A stretch of DNA of 13,972 nt from a virus. Taxonomy: Duplodnaviria > Heunggongvirae > Uroviricota > Caudoviricetes. The stretch spans positions 1-13,972 of IMG/VR virus record IMGVR_UViG_3300013105_000004; one strand, given 5' to 3'. Shown here in pieces: positions 7,516-11,955 of the stretch. A program made the translations under genes and the position numbers. Position 1 is the stretch's first letter. Each line of letters starts with the position of its first letter. The notes beneath the pieces are model-generated. The model was not told the DNA's origin. It did not search any database and saw nothing but the letters and a program-made list of their open reading frames with translations.

Positions 7516-7589
7516 TGGTACTGAATGATGGTAACGATCCACCGTCTATCGCTTATCAAGCGAGTGCTCTGCCATTGAGCTAATCCAGT
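7516..7589 (-). tRNA. trnI: tRNA-Ile (GAT)
   Basis: ACTGGAT/ATTCAGT acceptor, GCTC/GAGC D-stem, loop TTGATAA, T-loop ATCGTTA, ACCA. Confidence 0.92.
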
Positions 7590-7682
7590 AACGAGCGGCA
7601 GTTATCCTTCACTGCCAGATATGTACCGTTAGTACCATCACGCCGTTCTTCGCTGCGCAGCAAATTTACGGCCAACCTATTT

Positions 7683-7771
7683 TGGCGAAGGGTGAAGGAA
7701 TCGAACCATTACCTGTTCCTCACAAGTACCAAGGATTTCAAGTCCTCTTTGCGTCCTACGCGGCACCCTCC
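7683..7771 (-). tRNA. trnS: tRNA-Ser (TGA)
   Basis: GGAGGGT/ACCCTTC acceptor, G73, loop CTTGAAA, long variable arm, TTCGATT, CCA. Confidence 0.88.
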
Positions 7772-7782
7772 ATATTCAATTT

Positions 7783-7872
7783 TGGCGGAAGACTGACATC
7801 CCGACTGCCATACGCTCGACACGTACCAAAGGCTTAGCAAGCCCCGCCAGCGCCCCGGCTGGTTAATCTTCC
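7783..7872 (-). tRNA. trnS: tRNA-Ser (GCT), non-canonical T-loop
   Basis: GGAAGAT/GTCTTCC acceptor, G73, loop TTGCTAA, long variable arm, T-loop GTCGGGA, CCA. Confidence 0.85.
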
Positions 7873-7877
7873 ATATC

Positions 7878-7950
7878 TGGAACCAAACCATAGAATCGAA
7901 CTATGTATCTGCGGTTCGTAGCCGCTGAGCGGGAATCCACCCGGTCTGGT
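7878..7950 (-). tRNA. trnR: tRNA-Arg (ACG)
   Basis: ACCAGAC/GTTTGGT acceptor, GCGG-CTACGAA-CCGC, CATAG-TTCGATT-CTATG, CCA. Confidence 0.88.
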
Positions 7951-7954
7951 ATTG

Positions 7955-8368
7955 TTACTTGCCTGTACGTTCGTACTGAGCTTTTCGCTGCTCTGGCGTA
8001 CGCTTCTTCTTACTAGCGTACATCGCTTTATAAGCAGCAGTGCATTCATCGCATCTGCAACCTTTCGCGTAGGCGTTCGTCGTTCCGCATTTTGACGGGA
8101 GCCGACTTCTTGACGCTGCATAGTTGCAGACCTTGTGACTGAAGGAGATGTTGTCCATCGAGAAGAACAGGTTTACAGGGTCTTCGCTATCGAGCCAATC
8201 TTCCTTATGTTCAATCGAGAACGTTTCACGACTCATCGGCTTTCCGCACCTGTAGCACGCATTTTGCCCAGTCGTTAGTACAAAGTGGTACAGAATGTCT
8301 TTACCTAGTTTCGCATGCGCTTTACTTGCGCTCATTCCGAGTTGTTTCGATTTCTTGTCTTCAGTCAT
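7955..8368 (-). CDS. HNH endonuclease with zinc-binding CxxC motifs, 137 aa, inserted in the tRNA array
   Basis: CYRC...SIEHKEDW...NISFSHKVCN HNH-type pattern and C-terminal CGT..AY..GCRCDEC motif. Fills the whole Cys-Arg spacer. Confidence 0.78.
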   Translation of the reverse strand: MTEDKKSKQLGMSASKAHAKLGKDILYHFVLTTGQNACYRCGKPMSRETFSIEHKEDWLDSEDPVNLFFSMDNISFSHKVCNYAASRSRLPSKCGTTNAYAKGCRCDECTAAYKAMYASKKKRTPEQRKAQYERTGK

Positions 8369-8374
8369 AATATC

Positions 8375-8450
8375 TGGATACGCTAACCGGAGTTGAACCG
8401 GCCTATCTCGTTTTGCAGACGAGTACCTACATCCGCTCGGCCATAGCGTA
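8375..8450 (-). tRNA. trnC: tRNA-Cys (GCA)
   Basis: TACGCTA/TAGCGTA acceptor, U73, CTCGT-CTGCAAA-ACGAG, TTCAACT, CCA. Confidence 0.93.
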
Positions 8451-8455
8451 CTTTC

Positions 8456-8529
8456 TGGTGGACCTGTGGGTAATCGAAACCCAGCATCGCTCCGTGCAAG
8501 GGAGGACGACGTAACCTACGCTCAAGCCC
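8456..8529 (-). tRNA. trnA: tRNA-Ala (TGC)
   Basis: GGGCTTG/CAGGTCC acceptor with the G3:U70 Ala determinant, loop CTTGCAC, TTCGATT, ACCA. Confidence 0.92.
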
Positions 8530-8579
8530 AATGTTCGTCACGTTAATTTATGTAGACGCTGCGTGTCAGCGCCGTTGGA

Positions 8580-8654
8580 TGGTAGTCAGTGAGTATTTCG
8601 AAAACTCGACCTTCGCCTTGTAAGGGCGCTGCTCTTCCTCTGAGCTAACCGACC
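8580..8654 (-). tRNA. trnV: tRNA-Val (TAC)
   Basis: GGTCGGT/ACTGACT acceptor, GCTC/GAGC D-stem, loop CTTACAA, ACCA. Confidence 0.92.
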
Positions 8655-8660
8655 GTTGTT

Positions 8661-8737
8661 TGGTATTCCCAGCGGGATTCAAACCCGCGTCCAAGGATTG
8701 AAAGTCCGAGTGTCCTAGATCGCTAGACGATGAGAAT
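8661..8737 (-). tRNA. trnE: tRNA-Glu (TTC)
   Basis: ATTCTCA/TGGGAAT acceptor, loop CTTTCAA on a weak stem (3 pairs), GCGGG-TTTGAAT-CCCGC, ACCA. Confidence 0.83.
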
Positions 8738-8738
8738 A

Positions 8739-8830
8739 TGGTGCGTGCAGAAGGAATTGAACCTCCACCGGGTCGTGCCCACCACTGTTTTACAGACAGC
8801 GCCGACTTAACCAATATTCGGCTTACACGC
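8739..8830 (-). tRNA. trnY: tRNA-Tyr (GTA)
   Basis: GCGTGTA/TGCACGC acceptor, CTGT-CTGTAAA-ACAG, long variable arm, TTCAATT, ACCA. Confidence 0.92.
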
Positions 8831-8836
8831 GTTGTT

Positions 8837-8911
8837 TGGTGCGCCCCGATGGTAACGATCCATCCTCGAATGCTTTTCAGGCAAACGCTAATCCATCTCA
8901 GCTAGAGGCAC
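8837..8911 (-). tRNA. trnF: tRNA-Phe (GAA)
   Basis: GTGCCTC/GGGGCGC acceptor, loop CTGAAAA, GATGG-ATCGTTA-CCATC, ACCA. Confidence 0.92.
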
Positions 8912-9084
8912 AAATTCACTTACGCCAAAGCCCGGAGGGGCTAGTCCCGGTATTTCGTGGTTCATGAGGCCACGGTAGCCATGTAGGATAGCAGCCTCAC
9001 CAGAGCTTGGGAATCGAACCATCTGCTATCGTTGTGCGTGAGCGGTACATAACCGGGCCTCACTACTTTGGAGTAAATAAATTT
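8912..9084 (-). ncRNA. Candidate novel 173-nt structured ncRNA between tRNA-His and tRNA-Phe
   Basis: A 19-position terminal helix (9084-9066 with 8930-8912; 2 G.U, 1 mismatch) spans the spacer exactly. Internal helices GATAGCAG/CTGCTATC, CCCGG/CCGGG and CGTGG/CCACG, plus a TTCGATT T-loop. Confidence 0.65.
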
Positions 9085-9158
9085 TGGTGTGACGTTGAGT
9101 TTCGATCTCTATCCACCTGTTTCACAGACAGGTATGCTCCCATTACACTATCGTCACC
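9085..9158 (-). tRNA. trnH: tRNA-His (GTG), genomic G-1 with A73
   Basis: CCTGT-CTGTGAA-ACAGG anticodon arm, GTGACG/CGTCAC acceptor, T-loop ATCGAAA, ACCA. Confidence 0.86.
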
Positions 9159-9163
9159 ACTGT

Positions 9164-9240
9164 TGGTACGGACTGTGGGAGTCGAACCCACAAAATCTTG
9201 CTTCTAAGGCAAGCACGTAAACCAGTTCCGTCAAGTCCGC
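9164..9240 (-). tRNA. trnL: tRNA-Leu (TAG) with short variable loop
   Basis: GCGGACT/AGTCCGT acceptor, CTTGC-CTTAGAA-GCAAG, 5-nt variable loop ATTTT, GTGGG-TTCGACT-CCCAC, ACCA. Confidence 0.9.
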
Positions 9241-9330
9241 ATTGTTCGTGGCCGATTTTCTTTACGGGTACGGACCAACCCGCCTAAGGTAGCGATTCTC
9301 AGGGTACTCTGCCCTGCACGGGCCGAGACT

Positions 9331-9404
9331 TGGAGCAGGATGCCGGGATCGAACCGGCCTCAACGACTTGGAAGGACGCGGCACAGCCACTATACCAATC
9401 CTGC
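9331..9404 (-). tRNA. trnG: tRNA-Gly (TCC)
   Basis: GCAGGAT/ATCCTGC acceptor, U73, loop CTTCCAA, GCCGG-TTCGATC-CCGGC, CCA. Confidence 0.92.
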
Positions 9405-9474
9405 TTTGTTGGTTTCAGGCGCAAGATTCACTTGCCTTGGAACTGCCAGCTTTGTACGCTGACAACCCTACTTC

Positions 9475-9550
9475 TGGCGCGATGTATCGGTTTCGATCCG
9501 ATTACCCTCTGCTCGACAGGCAGACGCTCTCCCGATTGAGCTAACACCGC
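9475..9550 (-). tRNA. trnD: tRNA-Asp (GTC)
   Basis: GCGGTGT/ACATCGC acceptor, G73, TCTGC-CTGTCGA-GCAGA, ATCGG-ATCGAAA-CCGAT, CCA. Confidence 0.93.
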
Positions 9551-9556
9551 ATATTC

Positions 9557-9838
9557 TTACATTAGCTTCCGCATCAGGCGGAAGTTGTTTGCTACCACTA
9601 CGACGTACACTGCGCAAACAGCACCCAGCAGCCACGGGAACGGCAGCAGGAATGTGCAGGCTAGAGCTAGTAGCACAGCCTTCGGTACAGCGAGGCCAGC
9701 AAACGTACCTAGATGCTTAATGAACAACGACATCAGCGGGTTTGCCTCGGAGGCTACGCCTGCATCGATCAAACTTTTTGTAGAGTACCCGTCACACATC
9801 TGAAGCACACAGAGGACTACAAACAAAATGGCTGACAT
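9557..9838 (-). CDS. Small membrane protein, DUF5658-like, 93 aa
   Basis: AAAGGAA RBS, three hydrophobic stretches, and a D..ST.....G...EANP.M motif that I associate with DUF5658. Confidence 0.72.
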   Translation of the reverse strand: MSAILFVVLCVLQMCDGYSTKSLIDAGVASEANPLMSLFIKHLGTFAGLAVPKAVLLALACTFLLPFPWLLGAVCAVYVVVVANNFRLMRKLM

Positions 9839-9853
9839 GCTATTCCTTTATCT

Positions 9854-9932
9854 TGGCTCCGTACCTTGGAATCGAACCAAGCTAAACTCTGCTTAACAGG
9901 CAGGCCCATGCGCCATGCTCGGGTTGTACGAA
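9854..9932 (-). tRNA. trnN: tRNA-Asn (GTT)
   Basis: TTCGTAC/GTACGGA acceptor, G73, CTGC-CTGTTAA-GCAG, CTTGG-TTCGATT-CCAAG, CCA. Confidence 0.92.
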
Positions 9933-10003
9933 ATTGTAAGTTACCTCTGTGTCCAACTCTCGGCCGTATAGGAAGGATGTGGTTGGCGACACTGAGGCGG
10001 TAT

Positions 10004-10076
10004 TGGTTGCGGATGAGGGATTTGAACCCTTCTTTCGGGTTATGAGCCCATTGTGCTACCGTTACACCACACCGCA
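10004..10076 (-). tRNA. trnfM: tRNA-Met (CAT), initiator (fMet)-like
   Basis: GGG-CTCATAA-CCC, with the three consecutive G-C pairs that mark initiators. TTCAAAT T-loop and CCGCAACCA end as in bacterial tRNA-fMet. T1-A72. Confidence 0.87.
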
Positions 10077-10202
10077 ATTGTTCGGAACTACACTTAAAGG
10101 CTGTAGGCACCTGTAATTTCCTGTTTCTTGGTATTACTACCTCAGTGAGAGTAGATTAACTCACGCCGCTTCTGCGATTGCTCTGCTACAGCGACAAGTA
10201 GG

Positions 10203-10231
10203 ATATTACCATACGAAGCACTACTTGTCAA
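10203..10231 (-). promoter_or_regulatory. Sigma70-type internal promoter of the tRNA array
   Basis: TTGACA-N17-TAATAT. A 9-bp inverted repeat GACAAGTAG/CTACTTGTC (10193-10201, 10221-10229) overlaps it. Confidence 0.78.
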
Positions 10232-10255
10232 GCTTTGCGCTAACGCGCTGAATTC

Positions 10256-10330
10256 TGGTCAGGGATGCAAGACTCGAACTTGCGTCTCAGGCATCCAAGG
10301 CCCGCCGATTAACCGCTATCCTAATCCCTG
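10256..10330 (-). tRNA. trnP: tRNA-Pro (TGG)
   Basis: CAGGGAT/ATCCCTG acceptor, CGGGC-CTTGGAT-GCCTG, GCAAG-TTCGAGT-CTTGC, ACCA. Confidence 0.93.
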
Positions 10331-10419
10331 AAAAGAGTTTAACGACATACGTTTGTTGGTCGGGACATTCTCGGATTCCGCTACGCCAGTTCATCACGAG
10401 TCTCAACTGGAAAGCGTTC

Positions 10420-10503
10420 TGGTGCCGCCTGTAGGATTTGAACCTACGTGGATTTCTCGCCGGGTTACAAAGCCGGTGCTTTCGACCTCTCAGCCAAAGC
10501 GGC
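10420..10503 (-). tRNA. trnT: tRNA-Thr (TGT) with an unusually long variable region
   Basis: GCCGCTT/AGGCGGC acceptor (G1-C72, C2-G71), loop TTTGTAA with C31.C39 mismatch, 12-nt variable region, GTAGG-TTCAAAT-CCTAC, ACCA. Confidence 0.82.
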
Positions 10504-10815
10504 AAATTCGTCCCGGTTACACCCTCCGGGGCTACACTTAAAGCCGGTAGCTGCCTAGCTGTTAGTCCCGCTTACTTTTACGGGGACGCCGAAGCGCCAG
10601 CGGGCAACCAACCCAAGGAGAACATCGGAAGAGTAGTCGCCTACGACAACACTGGAGCAATCCGTAGCGTGTCGTTTCGGGGACAGGTGTACGCCGGGAG
10701 AACATGCAACGAGTTCTCCTTCGAGATATGGATCAACCTCCTTTCGGAATTGAAACAGTGGCGACTACTCTAATTCTGCAACCAGCGGTTTGTTCTGGAT
10801 GCTTTATCTGTTACG
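10504..10815 (-). ncRNA. Candidate novel ~310-nt structured RNA/leader between the promoter and tRNA-Thr
   Basis: Perfect 12-bp long-range helix (10760-10771/10630-10641), several nested hairpins, and GAAA and cUUCGg tetraloops on the minus strand. No convincing ORF. Confidence 0.6.
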
Positions 10816-10822
10816 TACTGAG

Positions 10823-10851
10823 AGTATACAGTACGCAGCTCTACTTGTCAA
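10823..10851 (-). promoter_or_regulatory. Sigma70-type promoter at the head of the ncRNA/tRNA array
   Basis: TTGACA-N17-TATACT with TG before the -10, immediately after the HNH stop codon. Confidence 0.82.
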
Positions 10852-10854
10852 GTT

Positions 10855-11589
10855 TTACGCACTTACGTGGTTCCACGTGATACCCTTCGCAATGCTGTAC
10901 ACAGTGTAATACTTAAAACCTGTAGCCTTTGCTACCTCGCCGGGTGTTGCACCTGTCGCGAGTGCTTGCTTGATCCTGCGGGCATCGTCGTTTGTGAGCA
11001 CAGCATTCTTACGCTGCTCTCCGAGCTTGTGAAGCCCGTTTTCAATCGAATGCGCAACGTTGTCTTTGTAATCGAGCCATTCCAGATTGCTTACGTTGTT
11101 GTTGAGCTTGTTTCCGTCCTTGTGGTTCACTGTCGGCAGGTCATCCGGGTTTGGAATGAAGGCTGTAGCAACGATGCGGTGAATGTACACTTTCTTGTTC
11201 CCGACCTTGTTCAATGCCAAGTACCCAGAGCTGATGATACCCGGACGAAGCCAGCGACAGTGCATGTGGGACCACACCTTGCCATCCCGTGTCACGGACC
11301 ACGCGCCATTAGATTCTAGCACCGGGCGGGATTCAAGCGCTTCGAACTCCGCTATACGCTCCTTGCGCGCGATCTTCTTCTGCTCTGCCGCATCAACAAC
11401 TTCTTTACCAACTTTAGCGACTCGCTTCTCACGCTTCAGGGTCTTACGTACGAGACGAAGTTGCTCTACGATATCATCCCGTCCGCTTGCTGCGTACGTT
11501 TTGATAGCAATGTGAAGGGCTTGACGCGAAACGCCTTTGGCCCGTTCTACAGCTTCGTCCAAGGTTAATTCACTCCAGCTCTTCGCCAT
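10855..11589 (-). CDS. HNH homing endonuclease (I-HmuI-like) with N-terminal helical extension and C-terminal HTH-like region, 244 aa
   Basis: WSVTRDGKVWS (NUMOD4-like), YIHRIVATAFIPNPDDLPTVNHKDGNKLNNNVSNLEW canonical HNH motif, AAGGAG RBS. Confidence 0.92.
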   Translation of the reverse strand: MAKSWSELTLDEAVERAKGVSRQALHIAIKTYAASGRDDIVEQLRLVRKTLKREKRVAKVGKEVVDAAEQKKIARKERIAEFEALESRPVLESNGAWSVTRDGKVWSHMHCRWLRPGIISSGYLALNKVGNKKVYIHRIVATAFIPNPDDLPTVNHKDGNKLNNNVSNLEWLDYKDNVAHSIENGLHKLGEQRKNAVLTNDDARRIKQALATGATPGEVAKATGFKYYTVYSIAKGITWNHVSA

Positions 11590-11613: not shown

Positions 11614-11955
11614 TCATGCTTCTTGGATGGTGTGCATATCAAGGCGAGGGGCGGAAGGCTTCTTCGCTACGTCTCCGGGGACGAGCGGAGTGCTAACACC
11701 CTTCGCCTTGATTTCTGCGATCTGACGGTTCAGTTCGTCCTTGTTGATCTGGTCCGTGATACGAATCTTCAGATCGAGGATCGTTTCTGCCAGCTTCAAT
11801 CGCTCCTTCAGCGTCAGCTTGTTTTCTGCGTCAGCCAGCGACTCAGCCATCAGGTCAATCGCATCGATTGTTACCTTGTCCAGTGATTTTGCGAGGTCAG
11901 CAAGTTCATGCTTCTTCTTCACGAAGATTTGCCCCTCTCGTAGTGCTACTGCCAT
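11614..11955 (-). CDS. Helical hypothetical protein, 113 aa; candidate terminase small subunit (function inferred only)
   Basis: CAGGAG RBS and its own consensus promoter. Size, helical character and position at the head of the late-strand block fit terS, but there is no diagnostic motif. Confidence 0.7.
   Translation of the reverse strand: MAVALREGQIFVKKKHELADLAKSLDKVTIDAIDLMAESLADAENKLTLKERLKLAETILDLKIRITDQINKDELNRQIAEIKAKGVSTPLVPGDVAKKPSAPRLDMHTIQEA

Follow-up and report, generated by a model that had tools for sequence, protein, structure and literature searches.

A folded RNA gene at the head of a phage tRNA operon, with predicted two-part complementarity to the phage's own ribosome-binding regions

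The DNA analysed here, called the window throughout, is the first 13,972 nt of the complete 90.8-kb genome of an uncultured phage (IMG/VR record IMGVR_UViG_3300013105_000004, genome labelled G000), and the element under study is an RNA gene on its minus strand, a promoter-driven, folded transcript of ~260–310 nt at the head of a tRNA operon. The RNA is built from a 5′ hairpin (P0), a domain closed by helix P1 and holding hairpins P2, P3 and P4, a linker, and the 3′ hairpins P5a, P5b and P6. An original prediction, made from the sequence of the window, had described an ornate RNA of ~310 nt at this position; the description was borne out, except that the last ~60 nt proved peculiar to the window phage, and the central reading, of a promoter-driven, non-coding, elaborately folded RNA outside known families, is supported. 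For its function, we tentatively favour a stable RNA that would be freed by RNase P and would pair in two parts with phage ribosome-binding sites, in the manner of the C4 antisense RNA. The features of the locus, in window coordinates, are as follows.

10823–10851 (−): sigma-70-type promoter (−35 TTGACA at 10851–10846, 17-nt spacer, −10 TATACT at 10828–10823), 11 of 12 consensus matches.
10504–10816 (−): the whole RNA, ~313 nt, running from the inferred start to the last base ahead of tRNA-Thr, its 3′ end presumably made by RNase P.
10778–10802 (−): hairpin P0, with a 9-nt loop containing an invariant ACC (AACCAAC-like in several relatives), from per-sequence folds.
10760–10771 (−): 5′ strand of P1, from the alignment of 13 sequences.
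10733–10753 (−): P2, an imperfect hairpin with a GAAA tetraloop at 10745–10742 (UUCC-GAAA-GGAG), from the local minimum free energy (MFE) fold.
10730–10745 (−): complement to the 3′ tail of 16S rRNA, 13 bp with one bulged U, bulge-free in the relative L032.
10697–10719 (−): P3, a hairpin (GGAGAAC/GUUCUCC) with a variable stem and a loop containing an invariant GUUGC, from covariation.
10676–10695 (−): junction J3/4, comprising GGCG, a possible 4-bp mini-helix and the invariant GUCCCCGAA, from invariant columns.
10643–10675 (−): P4, a long hairpin (ACGACAC/GUGUUGU) with a bulged AC and a GGR-UUGC-UCC tip, from covariation.
10630–10641 (−): 3′ strand of P1, from the alignment of 13 sequences.
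10615–10629 (−): linker, pyrimidine-rich and single-stranded in predicted folds, with UCUCCUU (10621–10615) resembling the 16S anti-Shine-Dalgarno (anti-SD) sequence.
10602–10614 (−): P5a, a mini-hairpin with a covarying stem and the loop UGGUU inside UUGGUUG, from per-sequence folds.
10585–10598 (−): P5b, a hairpin variable in sequence and length, with a UUCG loop in the window phage (GCGC-UUCG-GCGU), from folds.
10567–10584 (−): P6, a hairpin with a conserved A-rich loop (UAAA-N-GUAA), from folds and a covarying stem.
10504–10564 (−): insertion unique to the window phage (absent from 12 of 12 relatives), with a second P6-like hairpin (10530–10512, CCCGG/CCGGG).
10420–10503 (−): tRNA-Thr(UGU), first of a 16-tRNA array, whose 5′ end sets the 3′ end of the RNA.

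The promoter that had been claimed for the element was found at 10851–10823, with an inferred transcription start at A10816, and both promoter and Shine-Dalgarno (SD) usage are of the ordinary bacterial type. Directly behind this promoter, the RNA heads a 3.3-kb, mostly untranslated operon and abuts tRNA-Thr(UGU) (10503–10420), ending one base short of it, with a conserved GAAUUU spacer at the end of 10504–10564 preceding the tRNA. No terminator-like site was found between the RNA and tRNA-Thr.

Relatives were sought with the terminase, two conserved RNA motifs and a conserved upstream protein, and the element was recovered in 12 further contigs (13 homologues including the window phage), all from ~80–92-kb uncultured phages with terminases 68–98% identical to that of the window phage. 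The −35 box, spacing and TAnnnT −10 box were kept in all 12 homologues reaching the 5′ end, the distance from start site to tRNA was 256–352 nt among relatives, and tRNA-Thr began 5–10 nt past the RNA in 12 of 13 members, the exception being L009, where a 106-codon open reading frame (ORF; L009:3307–3627) is inserted between the two. Conservation of the RNA core equalled or exceeded that of the terminase gene in four of the five pairs compared (nucleotide identity 0.82–0.88 versus 0.68–0.81). A covariance model of the RNA family (R1) retrieved all members at 114–179 bits, and nothing else. Two of the true members came to light in pattern scans of metagenome and genome collections, and seven other matches from these scans, including an Acidobacteria metagenome-assembled genome and Streptomyces griseus, were discarded as chance, having no flanking similarity. 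Three divergent members had no blastn match among 50,697 phage records, an R1 search of PAK_P1, the nearest cultured relative (40% terminase identity), returned nothing, and the RNA was absent from more distant uncultured relatives, namely G003 (46% terminase identity), G008 and other fragments. The tRNAs of G003 follow a promoter and then a small protein gene, without the RNA.

The region folded with an MFE of −128.6 kcal/mol (z = −4.17), and none of 100 shuffles folded as well. In the 13-sequence core alignment, 94.5% of cells were paired, and 16 pairs were doubly changed versus 8.2 in shuffles (none of 500 reaching the observed value), while slid partners gave at most 8; covariation among homologues, a check named with the original prediction, thus supports the fold. 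Compensatory changes were found in P0, P1, P3, P4, P5a and P6, and the transcribed strand is fixed by the G-U pairs and the promoter. The 12-bp helix around ~118 nt that had been described, with three inner stems, is present on the minus strand as P1 (10771–10760/10641–10630, enclosing 118 nt) with P2, P3 and P4, and the described 3′ hairpins lie at 10598–10585, 10584–10567 and 10530–10512, the one given as GUCCC(C)G/CGGGAC taking the register 10584–10567 here.

Eleven pairs of P1 are 100% paired in the 13 sequences, five P1 pairs carry compensatory double changes, all six pairs of P3 do so, and so do five pairs of P4, in which A-U also swaps with G-U at the tip. In essentially every homologue, the local segment takes P2 as its MFE fold; the 3′ strand of this hairpin never changes, and its 5′ strand drifts and always refolds under the GAAA cap, with pairing-keeping changes in L007, L019 and L032. 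The 4-bp mini-helix in J3/4, which shows no covariation, is an unproven prediction. P0, P5a and P6 keep their shape with lineage-specific stem sequences, the P0 stem differing by lineage in per-sequence folds, the P5a stem reading GGGU/GCCC, CUUGGU/GCCAAG, GUGGU/GCCAC, GACC/GGUC and others across relatives, and the P6 stem reading CCCGU/GCGGG, CCCGC/GCGGG, CCCGG/CCGGG or GACGG/CCGUC; P5b is free to vary. The P5a loop of L042 takes the variant UUGGUGGUU form. The linker is invariant in 12 of 13 sequences and unpaired in folds of the isolated 3′ domain. The most divergent member, L032 (1307–1693, minus strand), lacks P0 and carries an insertion of ~90 nt with hairpins of its own between the CUUCAG of the linker and the UUUCUCCUU element.

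Two internal contacts could be drawn between these parts, one of 7 bp between the linker UCUCCUU and the invariant AAGGAGG of P2, the other of 4–7 bp between the loops of P0 and P5a. A scan of all column pairs gave no long-range covarying pseudoknot beyond P1, P3 and P4, and the pseudoknot candidates from that scan involve invariant bases only; since these bases never vary, self-masking or a switch through the two contacts is plausible but unproven. A switch had earlier been suggested for AAGGAGAAC (10721–10713), with a local (10703–10697) and a distal (10623–10615) partner. Both pairings can form in the window phage, but most relatives have a different P3 stem, so that the alternative partners are not conserved; the conserved pairing is that of the distal UCUCCUU with AAGGAGG of P2, and a switch or pseudoknot may therefore exist with a different partner.

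Known families were searched using Rfam 15 (4227 models, including C4, RNase P, tmRNA, T-box, riboswitches, ribozymes, ROOL, GOLLD, EAR, Y RNA/YrlA and 6S). On the window only tRNAs passed the gathering thresholds, at E ≤ 10 on 551 nt the best overlapping matches scored 10–15 bits versus thresholds of 33–75, and at E ≤ 5 on six homologues nothing overlapped the RNA, so that no known family was found for the RNA in the window phage or in those homologues. The reported lack of RNase P and tmRNA motifs agrees with this result: no Rfam model of either matched, and ARAGORN found no tmRNA. A riboswitch or T-box leader would need an expression platform, and none is present (no terminator-like site, and a tRNA, not an ORF, downstream). 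Several narrower identities were also considered and rejected: a 4-codon AUC mini-ORF behind the SD-like site, which a 1-nt indel disrupts in three members; a mimic of 16S helix 45, the GUAACCGU resemblance being confined to a few members; a CsrA sponge, the GGA of the P4 tip being GGG in half of the members; and an rrn boxA or lambda nut site, no boxA-like U-rich element being present.

The favoured reading, drawn from base-pairing predictions, begins with the 3′ end. RNase P excision is suggested by the short distance between the RNA and tRNA-Thr, and a cut there would free a stable, abundant, trans-acting RNA. Its exposed linker UUCUCCUU, an anti-SD look-alike, and its P5a loop would then pair with the ribosome-binding regions of ~25–45 phage mRNAs, in which a CAACCAA-type element stands upstream and AAGGAGAA comes next, and nearly all of which lie before non-structural genes of the opposite strand; the linker would cover the SD, and the P5a loop would give specificity. 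The likeliest outcome would be that translation of the target genes is dampened or timed. Within the same RNA, the AACCAAC-like loop of P0 and the AAGGAGG strand of P2, the latter extended to the 16S-tail complement, make up a leader-like mirror image of the seed, and may either mask it internally or let the RNA engage 30S subunits. The RNA holds sequences that resemble both halves of the initiation contact.

The antisense site itself consists of the linker UUCUCCUU, GG with or without 1–3 extra bases, and then UUGGUUG of the P5a loop, and the reverse complement of this site is the modal ribosome-binding region of the phage itself, CAACCAA then AAGGAGAA. In the genome of the window phage, 22 of 34 CAACCAA sites directly precede an SD and start codon, and AACCAA shows a 19-fold enrichment over the 28 nt upstream of SDs; the CAACCAA-SD sites lie almost all on the plus strand, at 14–66 kb. 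The genes behind CAACCAA leaders are non-structural (an SPFH protein, a UvrD-like helicase, a NAMPT-like enzyme, a deoxynucleoside triphosphate diphosphohydrolase and many small ORFs), and the best predicted leader duplexes have 17–19 pairs and −26 to −29 kcal/mol. In 3′-domain folds the seed is accessible, the linker being unpaired and UGGUU a hairpin loop.

Duplexes of a 38-nt tail with 41-nt leaders told little, their energies being inflated by large internal loops, and shorter windows and contiguous runs were used in their place. As control, CUCCUU was kept and only the 3′ part of the tail was shuffled, and each phage's own leaders bound at −20 kcal/mol or better were counted. A two-part complementarity exceeding shuffles was found in six of seven RNA-bearing genomes: in the six with a UUGGUUG loop, the leaders bound versus the shuffled mean were 42/20, 33/8, 45/20, 38/8, 25/12 and 28/12, with 0–1 of 100 shuffles reaching the observed count, and in G002, which has the loop GUGGUGG and lacks P0, there was no duplex excess (24 versus 31 shuffled). 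The tail of the window phage bound only five such leaders in each of two RNA-less relatives. Contiguous Watson-Crick runs exceeded shuffles in four of the six UUGGUUG-loop genomes, for example with nine leaders having runs of at least 12 nt in G010 versus 0.37 expected, and were not significant in G011, G013 and G002. CAACCAA leaders numbered 16, 15, 13, 8, 7 and 4 in the six loop genomes and 3 in G002, versus 1 and 0 in outgroups lacking the RNA.

Apart from the RNA, the AC-rich CAACCAA element is itself a candidate for a translational enhancer or a regulatory tag. It is enriched 10–20-fold before SDs in five of the six loop genomes, is absent from two related phages and is often doubled as CAACCAACCAA; examples of the element lie outside the window at genome positions 30947, 45230, 45583, 46403, 52822 and 57328 (plus strand).

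Several points weigh against the antisense reading. CU-rich stretches pair with any SD and a GU-rich tail pairs with AC-rich leaders, and the surplus above shuffles, of ~2- to 5-fold, is not absolute, with the contiguous runs falling short of significance in G011 and G013. The co-occurrence of RNA and leader motif amounts to one or two independent contrasts, as it follows phylogeny, the outgroups lacking both. CA-rich leaders are general translation enhancers, so the motif could have a reason unrelated to the RNA. Part of the seed lies in the P5a stem, which must open, the P0–P5a and P2–linker complementarities could be purely internal tertiary contacts, and the elaborate P1–P4 domain, with its invariant loops and junctions, is not accounted for by a simple antisense role.

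A serious rival, or possibly a second function, turns on P2. The P2 3′ strand (GGAGGUUGAUCC) is predicted to pair with the whole free 3′ tail of 16S rRNA, and the loop and 3′ strand together read GAAAGGAGGUUGAUCC. The duplex is worth −19 to −22 kcal/mol against the Escherichia coli tail, equalling a perfect 13-nt SD (−21.0 kcal/mol), and −24.2 kcal/mol with a UUUC-type tail; none of 500 shuffles reached its energy in four of five RNAs tested, and three of 500 did so in L007. On this reading, which we consider rather unlikely, the masked 13-nt complement would plug the anti-SD tail of free 30S subunits, with UCUCCUU only a lid, and the RNA would sequester 30S, bias initiation or shield the tail. 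It gains from the invariance of the P2 3′ strand against a partner that drifts and compensates, from the site occurring once in the 90.8-kb genome with no start codon or conserved ORF behind it, and from a GAAA loop that offers a toehold, and it has a precedent in STAB-SD, which binds 30S without starting translation (PMC4113751). In a milder version, the bound 30S would stabilise the RNA itself, as STAB-SD does for cry3A mRNA. The site is, however, base-paired in the predicted fold, P2 itself being worth −7 to −10 kcal/mol, most members carry the bulged U, and L007 has a mismatch though perfect complementarity was available. Titrating ribosomes would require a very high copy number, a general 30S block would hurt the phage too, because its own genes use SDs, and the UUGGUUG extension with its match to phage leaders is left unexplained.

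A self-contained folded RNA with another job (a protein scaffold or decoy, an anti-defence decoy, or a catalytic RNA) would turn the complementarities into internal tertiary contacts and the likeness to ribosome-binding sites into descent or coincidence, and seems a somewhat improbable account. Its invariant bases do cluster in loops and junctions (GUUGC of the P3 loop, UUGC of the P4 tip, GUCCCCGAA and the P6 loop), as is seen in RNAs with a tertiary fold or protein partners, and UUGC-type loops recur three times. The P0–P5a loops and P2–linker can pair intramolecularly, and P0 and the GGUU loop are lost together in L032, though L032 keeps UGGU with P0 gone. No partner protein is evident, the 113-aa upstream protein having no RNA-binding family and occurring also in RNA-less phages, no ribozyme or other family was matched in Rfam, and the excess complementarity to the phage's own leaders is again unexplained.

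That the RNA acts purely in cis, leading the tRNA operon as a cassette for processing or stabilising the polycistronic precursor, as a processive antiterminator of the put or EAR type, or as a riboswitch-like sensor that controls entry of transcription into the tRNAs, is quite unlikely. Its position directly behind the promoter at the operon head would suit such a role, and the P1-closed multi-helix junction with conserved junction bases resembles an aptamer, but no terminator or other expression platform precedes the tRNA, and no EAR, T-box or riboswitch family matched. Antitermination in cis is unlikely, since no terminator follows and RNase P would cut the RNA away from the polymerase almost immediately. 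The second promoter of the array (10231–10203) lacks a leader of this kind, in a related phage the promoter of the tRNAs is not followed by the RNA, and the conservation is beyond what a spacer needs.

Very unlikely is an adaptor that would re-aim the ribosome, with P2 plugging the native 16S anti-SD tail and the linker and P5a (UUCUCCUU..UUGGUUG) serving as a longer surrogate anti-SD. If this were true, an RNA-loaded 30S would prefer phage CAACCAA-AAGGAGAA leaders and ignore host mRNAs, as a natural trans-acting version of the engineered orthogonal ribosome. That the RNA is the mRNA of a 47-codon ORF (10562–10705), named at the outset as one reading that would overturn the RNA, can be dismissed for practical purposes: AAGGAG does stand 10 nt before its ATG, but most relatives have AGG or something else in place of that ATG, which lies in the P3 loop, indels that are not multiples of three interrupt the frame, substitutions track base pairing, not codons, and the product is an Arg-rich low-complexity string.

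The surroundings of the RNA were also annotated. The minus strand of the window carries portal, large terminase and head genes, two HNH homing endonucleases and 16 tRNA genes, the latter spanning 7516–10503. At 84 nt, including a 9-nt insertion in its variable region, tRNA-Thr(UGU) is unusual for a class I tRNA, and in relatives takes either a long form (83–87 nt) or a normal form of 75–76 nt. The second sigma-70-type promoter (10203–10231, minus strand; TTGACA-17-TAATAT with an extended TG) lies between tRNA-Pro and tRNA-Met and has no structured leader behind it, and a gene for a 93-aa DUF5658 protein lies among the tRNAs (9557–9838, minus strand). Free-standing HNH homing endonucleases have a hot spot at the RNA locus (window 10855–11589 and 7955–8368, minus strand): in 5 of 11 loci an HNH gene of 122–244 aa immediately precedes the promoter. 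In the window, 11 consecutive bases in the leader of the HNH gene are complementary to the window phage's own variant of the tail. Upstream of the RNA in all relatives is a 113-aa acidic helical protein without a family match (11614–11955, minus strand, in the window), which is also encoded in two more distant RNA-less phages, in one of them directly before the tRNAs. In G001 (IMG/VR contig ...037467_000284), an annotated direct terminal repeat (ends 1–211 and 91587–91808) crosses the RNA gene, and looks like the assembly overlap of a circularly closed contig, not a physical genome end.

As a new RNA class the element has weight of its own, RNAs of this size with clear covariation and no family being rare, and it gives a lead for the stable non-tRNA RNAs of phage tRNA clusters, which have been without a function since the finding of T4 rnaC and rnaD, by suggesting a testable role. 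A single molecule holds look-alikes of the two sides of the SD interaction, one tuned to the 16S tail, the other to the phage's own non-structural leader motif. If the antisense reading is true, a phage RNA governs a whole set of its own genes at translation start, as an RNA counterpart of T4 RegA, and the conserved CAACCAA leader element is explained; a two-part RNA against ribosome-binding sites with built-in masking could also be a design template for synthetic translational control.

Among known systems, ROOL and GOLLD are phage-associated, elaborately folded RNAs often found beside tRNA genes; they are two to three times longer than this RNA and both are held in Rfam, in which this RNA has no match. 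The T4 RNAs rnaC and rnaD (species 1 and 2 RNA) are stable non-tRNA RNAs whose function is still unknown (PMC9697503). Like them, the present RNA lies in a phage tRNA cluster beside homing-endonuclease genes (segB likewise lies inside the T4 cluster) and is predicted to be co-transcribed with tRNAs. The T4 RNAs, which mature with the tRNAs, are 139 and 119 nt long, stand at the distal end of their cluster and are not homologous, as R1 scored at most 8.3 bits on T4 70.5–73 kb with filters off.

The STAB-SD of Bacillus thuringiensis cry3A mRNA is an SD-like sequence that pairs with the 16S 3′ end and starts no translation (PMC4113751), and P2 likewise presents an SD-like 16S complement without a start codon behind. 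STAB-SD lies within a few nt of the 5′ end and is unstructured, whereas the P2 site belongs to a non-coding RNA and lies within a hairpin, ~70–90 nt from the inferred start.

The C4 antisense RNA of P1 and P7 is excised by RNase P, and one of its loops occludes a ribosome-binding site while a second binds upstream for specificity (PMC5320573). The present RNA is similarly phage-encoded, predicted to act in trans and in two parts, with the linker on the SD and the P5a loop on CAACCAA. No common fold or homology with C4 was found, as no Rfam model matched, C4 included, and the architectures differ: C4 has ~77 nt, three hairpins and one target operon, versus 260–310 nt, a four-helix domain and tens of predicted leaders here. 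Unlike C4, this RNA also has a 16S-tail complement, and RNase P would set its 3′ end, not its 5′ end. In reach, the nearest parallel is T4 RegA, a protein repressor that targets the ribosome-binding regions of numerous non-structural mRNAs of T4 itself; there the effector is a protein, and the effector proposed here would be an RNA acting by base pairing.
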